Source: Candidatus Micrarchaeota archaeon (lineage in GTDB: Archaea > Micrarchaeota > Micrarchaeia > Anstonellales > Bilamarchaeaceae). Taken from it: a stretch of 64,000 bases of DNA. Numbering within the stretch: position 1 is the stretch's first letter; the number at the start of each line of letters is the position of its first letter. The stretch covers positions 12,222-76,221 of the forward strand of contig JBFLYM010000001.1 in the NCBI GenBank assembly GCA_040757035.1, given 5' to 3'. Shown here piece by piece: positions 12,838 to 59,135 of the stretch. The position numbers were made by a program, and so were the translations under genes. The notes beneath the pieces were generated by a model, which was not told where the DNA came from, did no database searches, and was given only the letters and a program-made list of their open reading frames with translations.

Positions 12838-15165
12838 ATGGAAATGACAAATAAAACAATAATAATATTAATACTAATTTTGATCGCAGTTTTTACTGTA
12901 ATTTATTTCGTTCAAAATTGGATTGGTAATTTGCCTTCCGCTGTTTGTTATGATTCCGATGACGGGAGAGATTACTCTGTAAAGGGAATTGTTACTTATG
13001 GTTTGGAAAGTAAAACAGATACGTGTGCATATTGTACTGGTCTGTGTATACGTGGAAGTGATAGAAAATGCAAAAGTTCTTGTGGAGCAGTAGTAGAATA
13101 TTATTGCGAAAACAACAAAATTAAATCTAAGACTTACGTCTGTGGAAATGGAAGTACTTGTAAAGATGGGGCTTGCATTTTTGTTACATCAAACACAAAA
13201 CCTCAAAACACAAAACCTTCGTGTGGCAATGGGATTTGTGAGCAGGGAGAAACAATACAAACGTGTCCCGATGATTGTGCAACGCTTTCCTGTGTCTCAC
13301 TTCCTGAAGAATGGGGGATTCACGGTTTTAACAAATGCACCTTTACCAGTGGCTCTACTTCTGAATGGCCAATTTTAACCAGGTACAATTCCGCTACGGA
13401 TAGCTATGATCCGTATGGTTTTGATGTGGATCCTCATTGCCAGTTTCCTTTCTGTAATGAAAAAAGCACAAAAATCGATTATAATGAATATGCGTTTGAG
13501 ATTACGGCAGATTACGCTCCAACTCCAGATGATGTAAAAAGAGTAATCGCTTTCATCGAATCACTTGGTTATAAAGTTGATATTTACAATGATGTTAGTG
13601 GTGTGATTAGCGACGGTTCAAATCCTAATGTCCAGATTGTTAATAATTTTAGAACAGGGTTGGGCACTACTAATGTCGGGAATACGAAAAATAGCTTGGC
13701 TCATTTTATCTTTCCTCCAAATTTCTCAAAAAAAGATAAATTACCGATTTTAGTTAATAATTTGGGATCTGGTTCTACACCAATTCGTTTTCTTTATAAA
13801 GAATTCGGTAAAGAATTCGGGGTCTCGCTTTTACTTGAAGTTGTAGCCAAATCTAAAGAAGCGGGTAGAACTGGCATTATTGGCGTTATTCCTGCTGCAG
13901 GAGGACAGGGCTCGCAGGGTCATAATGAAGAATCGCTCGATGCCTTTGCTGAAACAATCACATATCTTAAACAAAACTTCAATGCTGATAATAATAAAAT
14001 TATTATGTTTGGTAGCTCTCGTGGAGGCGGAACTACCTTAATCAGAACCGCTAATCCTAAGGGACATGATTATAATGTTACTGCATTATTCCCTACTGCT
14101 CCACCAACTGCTGTTGGAAGTATGGCATCATTAGAGTCTGTTAATATTATTGCAATAGACCATTATTACCAAATGTTTAATGGTTGGTTGTATTATCCAA
14201 ACTATACCGCAACCAAGAACGCTTGGAAATATAATTCAAAATATCCACCGCATACTCTTCAGGCGAGCGCGTGTAAGCCATTATTTAATGTTACTAATAT
14301 AGATGAAGCGGATGCAAGATCAGCAATTGGCTATGCCGATTATCAACATTTTGGTGGAAAATATATAGTCCTTAGCTACGGGACACATGATTATGTAATT
14401 CCTTATCACCTTTCAATTAAATTTGATGAGGCTTTGAGAAAAGCAGATATCCCTCATAAAACATGTATTTTTCTTAAAGAAGGCCATGGTGACGGTAGTA
14501 AAAGATGTATGAAGGAGGAGCTGGAAAAATATGTTTTAGATTATTTGACAAAAGGGATAAGTCCTCAATTACCAAATGGTCGTTATTATTATGTTGCTAA
14601 TATTACAAAACATACTTCAGAATCTGCTTTTTACATGGGAAATGAAAATGAAGGCATTACACTTCCTTTTACAGCAATTATCCCGGCTAGTTTAGACAGT
14701 AAAATAGATTTTGCTGGATATCAAAATGAATACATTGGTAAGCAACAACCAGCAGATCTTATTTTGGTTGGAGCAAAAGGAAAATCCTTCAAAGTTCAGC
14801 TTTTGGATGCGAATCATAATTTTTTAAAAGAGTGGAGCGGTATTTTTGGTCAGAACACTAGTGGTGAAGAGTACCATGTTATCAAAAGTATTCAATTTGA
14901 GTGTCCAGATACTTGTGATTATTACTGGAAATTTTGGTTTGATGGTAAGGAAATCAGTCCTTATAATACCCCCTTTGCTGATAACTCGGGAAAGCCAAAA
15001 GAGGCTATTACTAAAGTAACCACCTGGCAGCCATATATTGATGAAGTGGTAAAGTATTTAGGCTGGGAAAATCTACTTATGGGTATAACCAGCATACCTA
15101 CGTGTGGAAATCATATCCGCGAGCAATGGGAAAACGAATTAATTTGTCCTGAAGATTTCACCTAA
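12838..15165 (+). CDS. Secreted or membrane-anchored protein with an N-terminal Cys-rich module and an alpha/beta-hydrolase-like domain (S9/esterase-like).
   Basis: N-terminal TM/signal anchor (IIILILILIAVFTVIYF). About 20 Cys in the first 170 aa, with CxxC-like spacing. Candidate nucleophile elbow GSSRGG. Downstream Asp/His candidates (GTHDYVIPYH). Confidence 0.5.
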   Translation: MEMTNKTIIILILILIAVFTVIYFVQNWIGNLPSAVCYDSDDGRDYSVKGIVTYGLESKTDTCAYCTGLCIRGSDRKCKSSCGAVVEYYCENNKIKSKTYVCGNGSTCKDGACIFVTSNTKPQNTKPSCGNGICEQGETIQTCPDDCATLSCVSLPEEWGIHGFNKCTFTSGSTSEWPILTRYNSATDSYDPYGFDVDPHCQFPFCNEKSTKIDYNEYAFEITADYAPTPDDVKRVIAFIESLGYKVDIYNDVSGVISDGSNPNVQIVNNFRTGLGTTNVGNTKNSLAHFIFPPNFSKKDKLPILVNNLGSGSTPIRFLYKEFGKEFGVSLLLEVVAKSKEAGRTGIIGVIPAAGGQGSQGHNEESLDAFAETITYLKQNFNADNNKIIMFGSSRGGGTTLIRTANPKGHDYNVTALFPTAPPTAVGSMASLESVNIIAIDHYYQMFNGWLYYPNYTATKNAWKYNSKYPPHTLQASACKPLFNVTNIDEADARSAIGYADYQHFGGKYIVLSYGTHDYVIPYHLSIKFDEALRKADIPHKTCIFLKEGHGDGSKRCMKEELEKYVLDYLTKGISPQLPNGRYYYVANITKHTSESAFYMGNENEGITLPFTAIIPASLDSKIDFAGYQNEYIGKQQPADLILVGAKGKSFKVQLLDANHNFLKEWSGIFGQNTSGEEYHVIKSIQFECPDTCDYYWKFWFDGKEISPYNTPFADNSGKPKEAITKVTTWQPYIDEVVKYLGWENLLMGITSIPTCGNHIREQWENELICPEDFT

Positions 15166-15188
15166 ACAAGGGATTAAAATAAAACAAT

Positions 15189-15752
15189 TTATAAAAAATG
15201 GCCCATTCTTTCTTTTTTTGTTTTTAGATAATTTTTGTTGTGTTTGTTTGGTTTCATTACCAATGGAATTCGTTCAACAATTTCAATACCGTTCTTCTCA
15301 AGTCCTTCAATTTTTTTTGGATTGTTTGTAATCAGTTTTATTCGCCTTATTCCCATTTTTTTTAGTATTCTTGAAGCAATACTATACGTCCGCATATCGC
15401 TTTTAAATCCAAGTTGATGATTCGCTTCAACCGTATCAAATCCTTTATCTTGCAATTTATAGGTCTTAATTTTGTTCGCAAGTCCAATTCCTCGTCCTTC
15501 TTGATCAAGATAAAGAATTATTCCTGCGCCTTCCTTTTTTATTATTTCAATCGATTTTTTTAATTGTTCACCACAATCGCACCTAAGCGACTGAAAAACA
15601 TCACCGGTTGTACACCGCGAATGTATTCTGACCAACACTGGCAACGTATTTCTTATTTCCTTATATATAAGCAGAAGATTTCCATCTTTATCTGCATTTA
15701 AAATAAAATTTCCAAACTTCGTAGGAAAAAACATACCTTTCATTTCTAACAA
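15189..15752 (-). CDS. ribA: GTP cyclohydrolase II (bacterial-type RibA).
   Basis: Motifs RIHSRCTTGDVFQSLRCDCGEQL, …EGRGIGL…YKLQDKG.DTVEAN, and a C-terminal …MGHFL. Collinear with E. coli RibA. Confidence 0.8.
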   Translation of the reverse strand: MLEMKGMFFPTKFGNFILNADKDGNLLLIYKEIRNTLPVLVRIHSRCTTGDVFQSLRCDCGEQLKKSIEIIKKEGAGIILYLDQEGRGIGLANKIKTYKLQDKGFDTVEANHQLGFKSDMRTYSIASRILKKMGIRRIKLITNNPKKIEGLEKNGIEIVERIPLVMKPNKHNKNYLKTKKERMGHFL

Positions 15753-16108
15753 ACCATTGTTTCATCTTAAAGGGCGTATCTCAATTATATTATTTGCATA
15801 AGTTATCTATCAAAAGTTATCTATCAAGGGATTTAAAATAATAACATGTTTTCGTGGCTGTCGATAACAAAGATTTTTGTCATTTATGGAAGATTGAGTA
15901 ATTTCAATGTTATTAATTTCTGGAAAGTTGGTTTTATATATTATGTCTATGAAGTCATTTAGTCGAAAATAATTAGCTAAGCATAAAAATGTTACTTTAT
16001 GATGTAAAATAGTAATATTAGCGTAATACTCATATCTATTATTGTTGTACGTATTTGACGAAAATCGTATATTGGTACAGGTTATATTTTGTAATATATT
16101 GCAAGAGT

Positions 16109-17041
16109 TTATAAATATTCCGTAAATGATTTCACCATCTTCACGGCAGCTCGAACAGCCCTTTGTGCATAATCTTTTTTTCTTTCTTCTGCTTGTTTTT
16201 CGTCAGCGATAGTTATTATTCCAAGGCTTATTGGTTTGTTGTTTTGAAGAGAAAGTTCCATTATTTTCTGTACAGCGGATTTTGCTATAATTCTATCATG
16301 CATTGTTTCGCCCTTTTTCACGTATCCAAGCGTCACAACCGCATCAATTTTTTTTTCGCAAAGAAGTTTTTTTACGCCAAGTGGAATTTCAAACACACCT
16401 GGCACTCTTATTATTGAATGCACCACTGCTTTTTCGTTTTTTGCTTCTTCAAGTGCAAAGTCAAGCATTGCATTTGTGAATGTATTGTTGAATTCGCCTA
16501 CAACTATGCCAAGAACAATCGGCCTTTCAATCAGACTTATTTCGCCTTCATCTTCTCGCCCTTGACGTATTCCTTTTCCAGCATATTGTATTAATTCGCC
16601 TGGATTTGTCGCTAATAAAATCGCGTTGTGCGCGTGTTTTCGCACTCTATTCTCGCAAATTATATAGAATTCTTCCTCGCTCCACGCTTCATTTTCATGC
16701 ACGAATACCTCTATTATGTGTTTGTTTGTCATGAGTTTGGTATTCATTATTCCAAGCGAAGCTTCGTGTGCACATTGAGTATCTATTGTCGCACCTCCAA
16801 CCATTCCGAGCGCCAAACATATATCGCACCCAGAATCAAGAAGTTTTTTGCATTCTGGAGGCAAATCCTTTACTCCAGGAACAGTGGTTCTAATAATTTC
16901 CACATCTGGATAATTATTTTTTGTTTTCTTTGTTTTCTTTGTTTTTTTTATTTCATCTATCGCAATTGCGCCCATATTCACGCGCGAGAACATCGTGTCC
17001 ACAATCCCGATTTTTACTTTATTTTTTACCATAGATATCAC
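16109..17041 (-). CDS. ribC/ribH: Fused archaeal-type riboflavin synthase (RibC, N-terminal ~165 aa) and 6,7-dimethyl-8-ribityllumazine synthase (RibH, C-terminal ~145 aa).
   Basis: The N-terminus KIGIVDTMFSRVNMGAIAI…TVPGVKDLP…CAHEASLG…LMTNKHIIEVFVHENE…GKGIRQGREDEGE aligns with M. jannaschii RibC. The C-terminus …GIVVGEFN…VPGVFEIPLGVKKLL…DAVVTLGYVKKGETMHDRI…RAVRAAVKMVK aligns with lumazine synthase. One uninterrupted 310-codon frame. Confidence 0.75.
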   Translation of the reverse strand: MISMVKNKVKIGIVDTMFSRVNMGAIAIDEIKKTKKTKKTKNNYPDVEIIRTTVPGVKDLPPECKKLLDSGCDICLALGMVGGATIDTQCAHEASLGIMNTKLMTNKHIIEVFVHENEAWSEEEFYIICENRVRKHAHNAILLATNPGELIQYAGKGIRQGREDEGEISLIERPIVLGIVVGEFNNTFTNAMLDFALEEAKNEKAVVHSIIRVPGVFEIPLGVKKLLCEKKIDAVVTLGYVKKGETMHDRIIAKSAVQKIMELSLQNNKPISLGIITIADEKQAEERKKDYAQRAVRAAVKMVKSFTEYL

Positions 17042-17705
17042 TTCCTTTGATAAATGGAATATTGTTTTGTTTTGCGTATTTCATTGCTTGTTTTTTTGTG
17101 AGTGCGTTGCCTCTTCCGAGCATTTCGCACATTACTATTGTTTCGCTCATTCCTGCGAGTTCGCTAAACTTCAGACCAATTTCTGTATGACCGCGGCGAT
17201 TTTCAATTCCTCTTCCAATAAGAAGAAAAACATGGCCAGGACTATAAAAGTTTTTTTCAAATTCTTTTTTTTTGTTTGCGTTTTTGTTTGCGTGCTCCTT
17301 GTTTACACTTTCTACAACTTTTGCGAATTCACGTATAGTCAACGCTCTATCATTGTCTGTTATTCCTGTGAATACTCTTTTATGATTTATTGCAATAGAA
17401 AATGCTGGTTCGTCACCGTAAGCAGTCTTTATGCATATTATCCGAGTCATTCCATAAGCTTTCATAATTTCGCTTATAAATCTAAGCCCGATTTGTTCTG
17501 CAAGCGTCTTTCCCACTGCCATACAAATAAGTCCGCCAGCATCTTTCCTAAGCGTTTCTATTTTCTCTGGAGTAACAAACTTTGGATGAAACACCAAGTC
17601 TGCTTCACCCTCTCGTTTATCATCATCATAAATGACTATGAAATTTCCATTTCTAAACTTATTCAATGCGTTTTCCAATATTTTTCTCATGCATCTAATC
17701 AGCAC
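17019..17705 (-). CDS. ribB: 3,4-dihydroxy-2-butanone-4-phosphate synthase (RibB).
   Basis: DDDKREGEADLV, GGLICMA and RRGHTE motifs. Overlaps the downstream ribC/ribH ORF by 23 nt. Confidence 0.85.
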   Translation of the reverse strand: MLIRCMRKILENALNKFRNGNFIVIYDDDKREGEADLVFHPKFVTPEKIETLRKDAGGLICMAVGKTLAEQIGLRFISEIMKAYGMTRIICIKTAYGDEPAFSIAINHKRVFTGITDNDRALTIREFAKVVESVNKEHANKNANKKKEFEKNFYSPGHVFLLIGRGIENRRGHTEIGLKFSELAGMSETIVMCEMLGRGNALTKKQAMKYAKQNNIPFIKGSDIYGKK

Positions 17706-17780
17706 GATTAACTATTTATAAATATTGACTGTATAAATATTGACTGCAATATAAACAGTCGATATGAACGGCTGATGTAA

Positions 17781-18021
17781 ATATACCGATCCACTAAAAA
17801 AACGTGGATCGCATATACTCATAAACCTTCACGGCCTAAAGGCCGTAGCTTCCTTAAAATGATAAAATGACAATGCAAAGGCATATTTGCCTTTAGGGGA
17901 AGCCGTAGGAAAGGAAGCCCGGTTCTCATCCTAAGGCACAAACGCCTTAGGCTTCCGAACCGTGGAGGTTTACCAATCGAGATAAAACCTAAAAAACAAA
18001 ACCGGAAAAACTTAGTTGGTT
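17781..18021 (+). repeat. Family-B repeat, long form (copy B2). MITE-like, with ATATAC/GTATAT termini. Its 3' end overlaps the aIF2beta start.
   Basis: 5' hairpin gatccactaaaaaaacgtggatc. Internal paired helices (ccttcacgg…ccgtggagg). 3' terminus aaaaacttagttggtt-gaGTATA. B3 and B4 are internal-deletion variants of the same sequence. Confidence 0.55.
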
Positions 18022-18454
18022 GAGTATAGCATTGAATATTGGTGATTTTATAAAAAAATATGAAGATTTGCTTGATGCTGCGTATAAAAGTATTCCTAAA
18101 GAGCTTTATAGCGGCTCACGATTTGAAATTATGAAATTGGAATCATTTACCGAAGGTACAAAAACTATAGTCAAGAATTTTGGTCAAGCAATGGATACGA
18201 TAAGGCGCGATCGCAAAGATGTGATGAAATTCCTTTCCAAAGAACTTGCTGTTCCAATTAATAGCGACGGTGATAGACTTATCTTACAAAGAAAATTCTT
18301 TGGCGACCTAATAAACAAAAAATTTGAAGATTATGTCAATCTTTACGTATTATGTAAGCAATGTAAAAAACCAGATACTCATATAGAAGAGATAGGACAC
18401 GGTGTTAAAAACATAATTTGCGAAGCGTGTGGTGCAAGACATTCGATTAAGTGA
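18020..18454 (+). CDS. eif2b: Translation initiation factor 2 beta subunit (aIF2beta). Non-ATG (TTG) start.
   Basis: …YEDLLDAAY…ELAVP…LILQRKF… and the C-terminal zinc ribbon CKQCKKPDT…CEACGA. Confidence 0.8.
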   Translation: MSIALNIGDFIKKYEDLLDAAYKSIPKELYSGSRFEIMKLESFTEGTKTIVKNFGQAMDTIRRDRKDVMKFLSKELAVPINSDGDRLILQRKFFGDLINKKFEDYVNLYVLCKQCKKPDTHIEEIGHGVKNIICEACGARHSIK

Positions 18455-50565: not shown

Positions 50566-50738
50566 AATATCGCTTTTTATTTTTTATTTCTTACAGCGAT
50601 TAAGGACTCAATTTAGCTTTTGGTCCTTGGTCTTCATGTTAATTAAGCTAAATTTGTCTATCAGTCTAAATTTAAAAAGTTATCTTTTCTATAAAGTAAG
50701 CATAAGTAGAAATATTGGTAGGAATTATGTATACCGAT

Positions 50739-51416
50739 AAAATTCTCAATAAAAAAATAGAAATAATTCCTGCTATTCTGGTAAAAACAAGAAAAATTCT
50801 TGTTGAATACATAAAAAAAGTAGAACGATATGTAAAGCGAATTCATATAGATATAATGGATAATAAATTTGTTCCAAACCTAACTTTAGGAACTAAAGAA
50901 CTTAATGAACTTCCGCAGAATGTAGCATACGAATTTCATTGGATGGTGTACACCCCGGAAAAATGGATAATAAAAACAAAGCAAAAATATCCAAAAGCAA
51001 AACAAAAATATTTTCATATTGTTCATATAGAAGTAATAGACAAGAATTGGGAGCAAATAAAAAAAGCAGTAAAAAATGTGCATGGAAATATTGGTTTAGC
51101 GATAAATCCTGAAACTCCGATAAAAAAAGTTTTCCCGTACATAAGAGATGTGAAAAAAGTTTTGATAATGTCTGTTCATCCTGGTTTTTCAGGGCAGAAG
51201 TATATCAAAAAAGTTGAAAAGAAAATTTTGATTTTGAGAAAAAAATTTCCAAGACTAGATATTGAAGTAGATGGTGGAATAAACAGCAAAACTGTTATTT
51301 CAGCTATAAAATCAGGGGCAAATAAAATTGCGGTTGCGAGCGCAGTATTTGATACTAAAAATGCGAAAAGAGCAATAGAAAAACTTAGAAAAATTATTGT
51401 TCAACATACTGATTAA
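50739..51416 (+). CDS. rpe: Ribulose-phosphate 3-epimerase.
   Basis: …IHIDIMDNKFVPNLTLG…SVHPGFSGQKY…VDGGIN… A TATA-like ttctataaag lies about 50 nt upstream, so the ATG at 50739 is preferred over the TTG at 50715. Confidence 0.85.
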   Translation, partial: KILNKKIEIIPAILVKTRKILVEYIKKVERYVKRIHIDIMDNKFVPNLTLGTKELNELPQNVAYEFHWMVYTPEKWIIKTKQKYPKAKQKYFHIVHIEVIDKNWEQIKKAVKNVHGNIGLAINPETPIKKVFPYIRDVKKVLIMSVHPGFSGQKYIKKVEKKILILRKKFPRLDIEVDGGINSKTVISAIKSGANKIAVASAVFDTKNAKRAIEKLRKIIVQHTD

Positions 51417-52284
51417 CGTGTTGATCGCTATGCGCGCTAAAATTACAAACTTGAAACAATTGAATCTTATTGCGAATACAATAAGACAAAACGTAATTAA
51501 AATGCTTCATGAAGCAAAAAGCGGGCATTCTGCAGGTTCGCTCGGACTCGCTGATATTTTTACCGCGCTTTATTTTAATGTTTTATATCACGATCCGCAA
51601 AACCCGCAATGGGATGATCGAGATAGGTTGATTTTGTCCAATGGGCATGTTTGTCCAGTTTTATACGCTACGCTGGCTAATGCAGATTATTTTCCAAAAA
51701 CAGAACTCATGACATTACGAAAACTTGGTTCGCGACTTCAAGGGCACCCACACAAAGGCACACTTCCCGGCATAGAAAATTCATCTGGTCCGCTTGCACA
51801 GGGGCTTTCTCAAGCGGTTGGAATGGCGATAGTTTCAAAGGCAGAAAAAAAGAAATGGCGCGTATATTGCATAGTCAGCGATGGAGAACAGCAGGAAGGA
51901 CAGAATTGGGAGGCGGTGATGTTGGCTGTAAAATATAAACTTGGGAATTTAACCGTAATAATGGATAGAAATAACATACAGATAGATGGTTTTACAGAGG
52001 AAATAATGCCTCTTGAACCAATTGTAGATAAATACAAGTCGTTTGGTTGGCATGTAATCCAGGTGGATGGGCATAACATTCAAAAAGTAATAGAAGCGTG
52101 CGAGGAGAGCAAAGCGATTTATGAAAGACCGACAATAATTATTGCGCACACAATTCCTGGAAAAGGAATACCGTTTATGGAATTTTTGGCTGAATGGCAT
52201 GGAAAAACGCCGAGTAAGGAAGAAGCGGAAAAGGCGATGGACATTTTGCTTGAATCTAGAAAAGAAATAGAAAATGAAGCGTAA
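51397..52284 (+). CDS. tkt: Transketolase, N-terminal (TPP-binding) subunit.
   Basis: …GHSAGSLG…LSNGH…GPLAQGLSQAVGMA…SDGEQQEG…. Confidence 0.9.
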   Translation: MFNILINVLIAMRAKITNLKQLNLIANTIRQNVIKMLHEAKSGHSAGSLGLADIFTALYFNVLYHDPQNPQWDDRDRLILSNGHVCPVLYATLANADYFPKTELMTLRKLGSRLQGHPHKGTLPGIENSSGPLAQGLSQAVGMAIVSKAEKKKWRVYCIVSDGEQQEGQNWEAVMLAVKYKLGNLTVIMDRNNIQIDGFTEEIMPLEPIVDKYKSFGWHVIQVDGHNIQKVIEACEESKAIYERPTIIIAHTIPGKGIPFMEFLAEWHGKTPSKEEAEKAMDILLESRKEIENEA

Positions 52285-52365
52285 ATGGTGTAAATGATTT
52301 TATAAAATGATTTTATATAATCTTATGATTTTAGTAATTTTGTTTAGACTGATTAATGTGATTTT

Positions 52366-53382
52366 GTGCTCAATCCAGAAATGCATCTTGATTTGAACGG
52401 AAAACAGAGTTCGCTACGCGATGGATTTGGAAAATCCTTATTGGCGCTTGGCGAACAAGATCCAAATCTATGGGTTATTACTGCGGATGTCGCAGAGTCA
52501 ACTCGCGTTCATTGGTTCGCTGAAAAATTCCCAAAAAGATTTGTGCAGGTTGGCATTGCCGAACAAAACATGGCGAGTGTTGCGTCTGGAATCGCAGCGT
52601 GCGGAAAAACAGTGGTAATTTCATCATTCGGGGCCTTTAATCCAGGAAGAAATTTTGATCAGATAAGAGTTTCAATATGTTATAATAATGTAAAAGTAAT
52701 TATACATGCATCGCATACTGGGATTACTGTAGGCGCTGATGGCGCGTCGCACCAAATGTTGGAAGATATTGCAATGATGCGCGCGCTTCCAAACATCGCT
52801 GTAATTGTTCCTGCTGATGCCGAAGAAGCGAGAAAAGCGACTATTGCTGCGCATTCTTTGGGATATCCCGCATATATTCGCACTGGAAGGGAAAAATTTC
52901 CGGATTTTACAACTTCTGAAACTCCGTTTGGATTAGGAAAGGCAAACGTACTGCGCGACGGAAAAGACATAGTGATTTTTGCGTGCGGAGTGGAAGTTCT
53001 TCAATCCCTCAAAGCAGCTGAAATACTTGAGAAGGATGGAATAAGCGCAGCAGTAATAAACGTGCATACCATCAAACCGATCGACTGTGAAACCATAATA
53101 AAATATTCAAAAAAATGCGGGCTTGCTATTTCGGTTGAGGAGCACCAGATAAATGGCGGATTGGGAAGTGCAATTGCTGAGGTAATTAGCGAATATGTTT
53201 GCGTTCCACTTAAACGGCACGGTATTTACAATACATTTGCAGAATCAGGCGAAGCATCAGAACTTATGAAAAAATATAAACTAGATGCACAGGGAATTTA
53301 CGAAGTTGTGAAAAAAACTATTAGCGATTGTAAAGAGATAGAATATAGGAAAATGCATATTCACTTGGATGAGTATAAATGA
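52366..53382 (+). CDS. tkt: Transketolase, C-terminal (pyrimidine-binding) subunit.
   Basis: …FVQVGIAEQNMASVASGIA…SSFGAF… and a C-terminal transketolase C domain. Confidence 0.9.
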   Translation: MLNPEMHLDLNGKQSSLRDGFGKSLLALGEQDPNLWVITADVAESTRVHWFAEKFPKRFVQVGIAEQNMASVASGIAACGKTVVISSFGAFNPGRNFDQIRVSICYNNVKVIIHASHTGITVGADGASHQMLEDIAMMRALPNIAVIVPADAEEARKATIAAHSLGYPAYIRTGREKFPDFTTSETPFGLGKANVLRDGKDIVIFACGVEVLQSLKAAEILEKDGISAAVINVHTIKPIDCETIIKYSKKCGLAISVEEHQINGGLGSAIAEVISEYVCVPLKRHGIYNTFAESGEASELMKKYKLDAQGIYEVVKKTISDCKEIEYRKMHIHLDEYK

Positions 53383-55269: not shown

Positions 55270-55668
55270 TTAAAAATTTATTTTTATTTTGTCTTTATCT
55301 TTTTTCATAAGTTTATTTTTTAAATTTACTGTTGAAATTATTTCAATTATTTCAAAAGGATGGCGAGTACGTAGTGGAATTACTAATGCGCATTTTATTT
55401 TGTTAATTGTACACGGATATGTAAATAAATCTCCAAATGTTCTTTTTCCTCTTTTAAATCCCTTTATGATAATTGGTTCTGAATTTTTCAGGTAATATGT
55501 TTTCTTTGTGGTTTCTTCTGGCAATAATCTTATATTAAGCGTCCCTTCATAAGGATTAAAACCAAGTTTTTCTTTAATTTGTTTTTTGTATTCAGAAAAT
55601 GCCATATAATATTTTCCTTCACCGAACCCTGAGACTATTGTTCCTAAAATTGTAAACATTTCTATCAT
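55270..55668 (-). CDS. ribK: CTP-dependent riboflavin kinase, archaeal type (RibK).
   Basis: …GTIVSGFGEGKYYMAF…LGFNPYEGTLNIRL… is collinear with MJ0056. Confidence 0.8.
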   Translation of the reverse strand: MIEMFTILGTIVSGFGEGKYYMAFSEYKKQIKEKLGFNPYEGTLNIRLLPEETTKKTYYLKNSEPIIIKGFKRGKRTFGDLFTYPCTINKIKCALVIPLRTRHPFEIIEIISTVNLKNKLMKKDKDKIKINF

Positions 55669-58373: not shown

Positions 58374-59135
58374 TTATCTTGTTTTAATCCACTCAAGAAT
58401 TGCGTTTTCAGCTGTATCAAAATCAACAAGTTTCCCAAATACTATTTGTTTAAGCTCTTTATTCCAATCATCTCTTTTCTTTTTTAAGCTATCAACAAAT
58501 TCCTGTTCTGAAAAAATTTCATCGTAATATTTAAGTTTTTTATTTATCAATTCAATGTTAAATTTTATCCCTTTATTCTTAATAAGAAAGAACAGATCAT
58601 AAACATCTCTTGGCTTTTTTCTTTTCATAATTGCTCTTATTTTTTCAGCTGCCACTTCATTAATACTCATTCCATTAATTATCTTAGTTGGTGCTTCATA
58701 TGCATCGAAATTTAGCTTTACTGAAAGACTATCTGCTACAAGATTCTCCCTTTTGCTTATTTCTACGTAGATATGGCACAAATCTATATCAGATGTGTTA
58801 AGTGGACCCTTAGCGCTCACGCGAAATGAAAAATTACAATCGCTGTTATTAATTCTTTTTAGTATATTTTCTACTCCAAACAATCTAAGTCCTTCTGAAA
58901 CTTTTGTATCTAGATCGTTTGGTAAATCTCCAATTGCCATTAAATCCACATCTTCGGAGAATCTATCAAGACCGTGAAAAAACCAGAGATATGTTCCACC
59001 TTTAAATACAAGTGGGTACTCTGAAAGTGTTACAAAAATAAAGAACTGTATGTAATGCTTCTCTTGCTGCCATGTTTTTCTATCATACAATTTTGCAATA
59101 GAGATTAATTTTTCCTTGCTTATCATTTCAACCAC
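58374..59135 (-). CDS. AbiEii/DUF1814 nucleotidyltransferase toxin (type IV toxin-antitoxin).
   Basis: …FKGGTYLWFFHGLDRFSEDVDLMA… is the nucleotidyltransferase signature of AbiEii. Overlaps the upstream antitoxin by 13 nt. Confidence 0.7.
   Translation of the reverse strand: MVEMISKEKLISIAKLYDRKTWQQEKHYIQFFIFVTLSEYPLVFKGGTYLWFFHGLDRFSEDVDLMAIGDLPNDLDTKVSEGLRLFGVENILKRINNSDCNFSFRVSAKGPLNTSDIDLCHIYVEISKRENLVADSLSVKLNFDAYEAPTKIINGMSINEVAAEKIRAIMKRKKPRDVYDLFFLIKNKGIKFNIELINKKLKYYDEIFSEQEFVDSLKKKRDDWNKELKQIVFGKLVDFDTAENAILEWIKTR

Follow-up and report, generated by a model that had tools for sequence, protein, structure and literature searches.

Lumazine synthase (LS, RibH) makes 6,7-dimethyl-8-ribityllumazine from 5-amino-6-ribitylaminouracil and dihydroxybutanone phosphate (DHBP), and riboflavin synthase (RS) dismutates two of these lumazines to riboflavin, regenerating one aminouracil. 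The archaeal RS (RibC) is a pentameric paralogue of LS, and both are homopentamers of one fold (PMC7369331). The closest described case of a physical association between the two consecutive enzymes is the bacterial heavy riboflavin synthase of B. subtilis and A. aeolicus, an LS60 capsid that encloses an RS trimer. It co-localises the producer and the consumer of lumazine, and substrate channelling has been reported for it (PMC13376624). Among 166 organisms surveyed, 60 RS/LS pairs were predicted to form such a targeting-peptide complex, and every one of them was bacterial (PMC13376624). As to whether archaeal LS forms capsids, PMC7369331 and PMC13376624 disagree.

The window, by which we mean the whole 64 kb stretch of DNA analysed here, carries a gene in which ribC and ribH are joined in one reading frame (ribC::ribH, Table 1). 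An earlier note on this DNA had read it as a covalent RS-LS fusion. Judging from its sequence and its relatives, the product is a real, conserved RS-LS fusion that is probably bifunctional.

Gene and operon

The ORF listing of the window shows no stop codon inside the 310-codon frame, in agreement with the earlier note. The frame is longest from a GTG, and an alternative start, ATG 17032, yields 307 aa and lies 5 nt 3' of the SD-like GGAAGTGA. We found a protein of the same length, P0001, that is 100% identical to the fusion protein of the window and starts at the residue matching ATG 17032. Because of the SD-like element and because the same start was chosen in P0001, we prefer the ATG over the GTG as the probable real start. 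The ribB stop codon (17019-17021) lies inside the fusion gene, and from the resulting overlap we read ribB as translationally coupled to the fusion. The overlap of 23 nt given in the earlier note holds for the longest ORF, from GTG 17041, and shrinks to 14 nt with ATG 17032.

Table 1. Features of the ribC::ribH locus and related genes in the window.
Feature	Position	Strand	Remarks
ribC::ribH fusion ORF	16109..17041	-	310 aa from GTG 17041; stop codon 16109-16111
SD-like GGAAGTGA	17038-17045	-	within the ribB 3' end; read from the sequence
RibC domain, archaeal pentameric-type riboflavin synthase	16538..17014	-	aa 10-168; ends in AGKGIRQGREDEG
9-nt repeat, about 3.8 copies, in frame	16920..16953	-	TRF; encodes KKTKKTKKT (aa 32-40), then KNN
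Linker EISLIERPI	16517..16543	-	aa 167-175; equals old RS tail, stop codon and LS N-terminus
RibH domain, 6,7-dimethyl-8-ribityllumazine synthase	16124..16513	-	aa 177-306
ribB	17019..17705	-	PF00926 1.5e-50; TIGR00506 191.7 bits; makes one LS substrate
Fusion-ribA spacer	15753..16108		356 nt, 26% GC; perfect 14-nt x2 direct repeat 15800-15827
ribA, bacterial-type GTP cyclohydrolase II	15189..15752	-	PF00925 9e-60; TIGR00505 244 bits
ribK, archaeal CTP-dependent riboflavin kinase	55270..55668	-	PF01982 3.2e-40; consumes the fusion product
Ribulose-phosphate 3-epimerase and split transketolase	50715-53382	+	provide ribulose-5-phosphate, which RibB uses as substrate
AbiEii-type nucleotidyltransferase toxin (type IV toxin-antitoxin system)	58374-59135	-

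The gene order ribB, ribC::ribH, ribA recurs in all 18 fused loci that we found in other genomes (see below). The presence of RibB, RibA and RibK in the window fits an organism that both makes and uses riboflavin; a gene for the reductase or the deaminase step of the pathway was not found among the window ORFs scanned.

RibA is of the bacterial type in an archaeal genome. In archaea the ArfA/ArfB route is expected in place of GTP cyclohydrolase II. This ribA neighbours the fusion in all fused loci and is also present in two Micrarchaeota loci with separate ribC and ribH genes (L021, L029). The spacer between fusion and ribA is unusually long, with 356 nt as against about 5-60 nt in the 18 fused relatives, and may serve ribA as a promoter of its own or hold a site for a regulator. 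A search of positions 14900-18300 gave no Rfam match at E≤1, and thus no riboswitch-like element. Just upstream of ribB, a perfect 15-nt tandem repeat in two copies (17717-17746), each with TTTATA on the coding strand, may represent a TATA box that was duplicated, or the binding site of a rib operon regulator; its spacing would suit a leaderless transcript from ATG 17690. Elsewhere in the window, a 190-aa ORF without family match follows the AbiEii-type toxin gene and may encode the antitoxin.

The two enzyme domains

The N-terminal half matches the NCBIfam equivalog TIGR01506 (ribC_arch) over the full length of the model (aa 10-168, profile positions 1-151 of 151), with 205.3 bits at a curated cutoff of 100.55. 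In sequence searches against the PDB it matched the riboflavin synthase of M. jannaschii (MjRS, 2b98/2b99) with an E-value of 4e-45, through the AGKGxRQGxEDxG tail and with about 53% identity over the matched stretch. Foldseek searches with an AF2 model gave a target-normalised TM-score of 0.93 to 2b99_A and a range of 0.91-0.93 for 2b98/2b99. Full-length profile match, M. jannaschii RS fold and family-invariant residues, including AGKGxRQG, all place this half in the RibC family (EC 2.5.1.9), as the earlier note had claimed for the N-terminal ~165 residues up to GKGxRQGxED.

The RS half contains an insert, KKTKKTKKT, in a surface loop of low model confidence (pLDDT 56). The insert is specific to this genome, being missing from all 23 aligned homologues, and its coding repeat looks like a recent microsatellite expansion within a conserved enzyme.

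The C-terminal half was identified by TIGR00114 (lumazine-synth equivalog of NCBIfam; aa 177-306, 146 bits, cutoff 84.6) and by PF00885 (3e-50), which bears out the reading of the C-terminal ~145 residues as LS; the motifs cited for that reading, VPGVFEIP and DAVVTLGYVKKGETMHD, are both there. Searched alone against the PDB, this half matched the lumazine synthases of B. anthracis, B. subtilis and A. aeolicus (4v7g, 1rvv, 1hqk) with E-values of 3e-17 to 1e-13, and its target-normalised TM-scores to LS structures were 0.8-0.88 (Foldseek, AF2 model). A sequence alignment with B. subtilis LS (1rvv) maps F22, H88, R127 and K135, which we take to be the catalytic set of that enzyme, onto F184, H248, R287 and R294, the last being a Lys-to-Arg change. 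These four residues are invariant in an alignment of 24 fused proteins (A1), so that the catalytic-residue equivalents assign the half to RibH (EC 2.5.1.78) as well.

For a wider view of conservation, we took the alignment columns in which at least 95% of 61 stand-alone RS/LS pairs agree; of such positions, the RS half keeps 49 of 54 and the LS half 22 of 26. Systematic replacements in the fused proteins occur at RS residue 81, where 'MPG' has become 'MVG' (Pro81 survives in 4% of fused proteins; the window has Val), and at LS position 301, where a lysine that is invariant in stand-alone enzymes survives in 12% of them. They may be adaptations to the fused assembly.

Along the fusion protein, Pfam matches PF00885 twice, and together with the Foldseek results this confirms that both halves belong to one pentameric fold family. 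They are distant paralogues (E 5e-6 between the RS and LS halves), which argues against a recent tandem duplication of one enzyme; that origin is ruled out, each half also matching a different equivalog model.

The AF2 monomer has two well-folded alpha/beta domains (mean pLDDT 87), whose mutual orientation is undefined because the pTM is 0.60. The linker is modelled with a pLDDT of about 61-66 (blocks spanning model residues 151-170). Foldseek found no solved structure chain that spans both halves, the best query-normalised TM-score being 0.47. In the main fused clade, identity is 70% for RS, 55% for LS and 42% for the linker. A start-codon scan of the window linker found no in-frame ATG, GTG or TTG. 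The linker has no in-frame start codon in 7 of 19 fused genes (the window and six other loci), and in the remaining ones an ATG or GTG occurs sporadically, at positions that are not conserved. The LS domain should therefore be made only within the fusion.

Distribution and origin of the fusion

A search with the fusion protein over 5.8 billion proteins yielded 476 matches. The best 120 clusters among them are all of similar length (286-331 aa) and cover 86-99% of the query at identities of 55-100%. P0001, the identical protein, comes from an independent assembly and has three member sequences. We also scanned genomes, with one genome per species (GTDB), kept the 80 best loci among roughly 587 genome hits and checked their frames individually; 18 of these 80 species-representative loci have a single open frame across both halves. 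All 18 are in MAGs, labelled Micrarchaeota, Micrarchaeia, Bilamarchaeaceae, 'ainarchaeum' or 'uncultured archaeon', and one of these MAGs, LFW-283_2, is the genome that typifies 'Ca. Bilamarchaeum dharawalense' (type genome). Orthologous fusions, which the earlier note had proposed to look for in related genomes, thus exist in at least 120 protein clusters and 18 species-level genomes. Their identical frame also settles in favour of a real fusion the concern that a missing stop codon or a frameshift had joined the two halves.

These proteins are abundant in public databases, and the only name that we saw for them there is 'riboflavin synthase'. Neither Pfam nor NCBIfam has a model for an RS-LS fusion, and full-text literature searches found no description of one, which agrees with the earlier statement that the covalent fusion is not a described architecture. 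It looks undescribed.

In the other 62 of the 80 loci the genes are split: ribC ends in a stop codon and is followed, after a spacer of 0-170 nt that often contains a GGAGGT motif, by ribH. Such loci were found in Methanosarcina, Methanoregula, Methanospirillum, Thermoplasmata, Methanomassiliicoccales and Iainarchaeum, as well as in Undinarchaeales, Altiarchaeota, Hermodarchaeota, Thermoproteota and four Micrarchaeota. Separate, adjacent ribC and ribH genes across such distant archaea make this the widespread and presumably ancestral arrangement. Separate genes with a stop codon between them, which the earlier note had named as evidence against a fusion, thus do occur, in more distant relatives; instead of refuting the fusion, they reveal its origin.

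The most informative of the split loci is L021, from a member of the Anstonellaceae. At its junction (...EDEGEIKL-TAG-GTG-AGA...) the ribH start codon follows directly, and in frame, on the stop codon of ribC; one substitution would yield the fused form. In the alignment, I171 of the window protein occupies the position of this stop codon. In a NJ tree of the concatenated halves, which carries no support values, the window groups with the 18 fused loci, and the sister group of this clade consists of L018 and L021, both split. The ribH gene was in the ribC frame in all 80 loci kept; we set this pattern aside as a ranking bias and not as biology, since tblastn gives a higher score to one segment reading on through the stop codon.

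The fusion would accordingly have been born inside Micrarchaeota, in a lineage that includes Bilamarchaeaceae, when the stop codon between ribC and the abutting, same-frame ribH of an operon was lost; the old RS tail and the old LS N-terminus would have become the linker. We consider it likely that the gene encodes a genuine bifunctional enzyme, composed of RibC, a linker of about nine residues and RibH, that arose by stop loss within Micrarchaeota. In evolutionary terms such a fusion is unremarkable, being a stop loss that joins two neighbouring genes of one pathway.

In a separate search of 1.84 billion representative proteins we found about seven further full-length RS-LS clusters (P0121, P0123-P0127, P0129), one of which (P0127) is labelled Woesearchaeota. 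Four of them were scanned (P0121, P0124, P0126, P0127), and both domains were above the curated cutoffs in each. Their linkers, of about 10-24 residues, are different, and the NJ tree, which has no support values, places them among the split pairs. Since linkers and tree positions differ, the sequences suggest several independent fusion events. We also found a protein of reversed order, P0165, in which a type-II-like LS precedes an archaeal-type RS (from a single 1.6-kb contig), and an LS-LS tandem (P0158). The fusion described here belongs to one Micrarchaeota lineage specifically, with counterparts in other lineages of archaea. In four further proteins (P0134, P0135, P0146, P0233), an RS or LS domain is combined with a region of 190-250 aa that has no Pfam or NCBIfam match.

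Function and assembly

From sequence comparison, both halves look functional. The LS domain of the fusion would use DHBP from the upstream RibB to make lumazine, and the RS domain would hand one aminouracil back to the LS domain. By fixing a 1:1 stoichiometry and holding producer and consumer within a few nanometres of each other, the fusion would turn the pair into a small internal cycle.

Since both parents are homopentamers of the same fold, assembly on a shared five-fold axis is most likely; it would take the form of two stacked rings, or of LS assemblies with RS pentamers outside. The RS C-terminal motif presumably takes the place that the active-site loop has in LS, whose N-terminus is presumably on the opposite face of the fold. 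With these positions, a coaxial head-to-tail stack of RS on LS would be the simplest assembly. It is also conceivable that an LS capsid carries the RS pentamers on its exterior. The native termini of LS are on the outer face of LS capsids, so RS would probably be outside.

As to why the genes became fused, a neutral stop loss in a compact genome and a benefit from proximity appear equally plausible to us. The fusion could be a by-product of DPANN genome compaction, in which the loss of the stop codon brought no channelling or kinetic gain and was tolerated since the two products, both of them pentamers, are required in similar quantity; we give this explanation a good chance, if a little less than even. 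It would account for a linker that is short, poorly conserved (42% identity) and built from the old termini, and it asks for one substitution only, as ribC and ribH are 0-30 nt apart in split relatives and often in the same frame. Separate genes, moreover, suffice in most archaea. Yet the fused clade has diverged to about 55% protein identity without reversion, and there are several fusions with different linkers and one with reversed, LS-RS, order; this persistence and recurrence hint at selection for proximity. The non-covalent LS/RS complex of Bacillus, for which substrate channelling is reported (Kis and Bacher 1995, as cited in PMC13376624), also speaks against a purely neutral origin.

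If proximity was selected, the protein might be a two-tier RS5-LS5 assembly, or an LS 60-mer with twelve external RS pentamers, that passes lumazine directly and recycles aminouracil, and the repeated fusions would reflect that selection. Taken as a whole, this picture is tentative and we rather doubt it.

It is very unlikely that one half is catalytically dead and serves only as a scaffold or pentamerisation domain of a monofunctional protein. The database name, 'riboflavin synthase' only, might suggest this, but it is one-sided because the higher-scoring model supplies the name. LS is less conserved than RS in the main fused clade (55% vs 70%); even so, the LS half scores well over the cutoff of TIGR00114 and keeps F184, H248, R287 and R294. 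Its dN/dS is low like that of the RS half (0.071 and 0.062, respectively, for L008 and L012, the closest genome pair); values for both halves were obtained in two pairs only (L008/L012, L007/L011), with L013/L014 giving the RS half alone, and dS was saturated in all but the closest pairs. Further, the 64 kb window contains no second RS or LS gene, so that no other LS is at hand there.

It is extremely improbable that an error of sequencing or assembly produced the single frame, or that internal translation initiation yields a separate LS half. The window, as one assembled sequence, does lack read support, and some fused relatives have a sporadic linker ATG or GTG, but P0001 is identical in an independent assembly, the frame recurs in at least 119 more clusters and in 18 genomes, and a linker start codon is absent from the window and six other loci and not conserved in position elsewhere.

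Comparison with known systems

Reading the gene as a bifunctional RS-LS enzyme has a practical consequence for annotation. As databases list the fused proteins under 'riboflavin synthase' alone, ribH may be scored as missing when pathways of Micrarchaeota are reconstructed automatically, and vitamin B2 autonomy may thereby be understated in a group whose host dependence is debated. Near-complete riboflavin pathways 'with gaps' have been described for related MAGs (PMC8561730). The mechanistic interest is modest. LS serves as a model system in work on channelling and is in wide use as a scaffold for nanoparticles; its natural 1:1 fusion to a pentameric paralogue offers a simple test of whether proximity alone channels and would also reveal how two five-fold assemblies pack on one chain. 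In addition, split and fused states in sister lineages make this a clean example of gene fusion by stop loss. We regard the novelty as real but modest, the fusion being a variant of known enzymes.

In comparison with stand-alone RibC (M. jannaschii MJ1184; 2b98/2b99) and RibH, the fusion keeps both domains, their order and their neighbours in the operon. It differs from adjacent ribC and ribH genes in lacking the stop codon and the spacer, so that both domains are on one polypeptide.

Other neighbouring genes of the pathway have likewise been fused, in RibBA (DHBP synthase/GTP cyclohydrolase II), RibD (deaminase/reductase) and RbkR. These, however, join unrelated folds and are curated, named families, with dedicated RibBA models in NCBIfam, whereas the RS-LS fusion has neither model nor name.

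The heavy riboflavin synthase brings together the same two consecutive enzymes, yet by different means. It is non-covalent, with 3 RS to 60 LS, and its RS is an unrelated, trimeric enzyme of the RibE type (PF00677) that a C-terminal peptide targets into the lumen of the LS 60-mer. The RS half of the fusion belongs to PF00885/TIGR01506 instead, and its C-terminus, in place of a cage-localisation peptide, runs on into the LS domain. Thus, where the bacterial complex encapsulates an RS of another family, the fusion carries a pentameric LS paralogue as its RS, linked covalently to the LS N-terminus in one polypeptide and in a ratio of 1:1.
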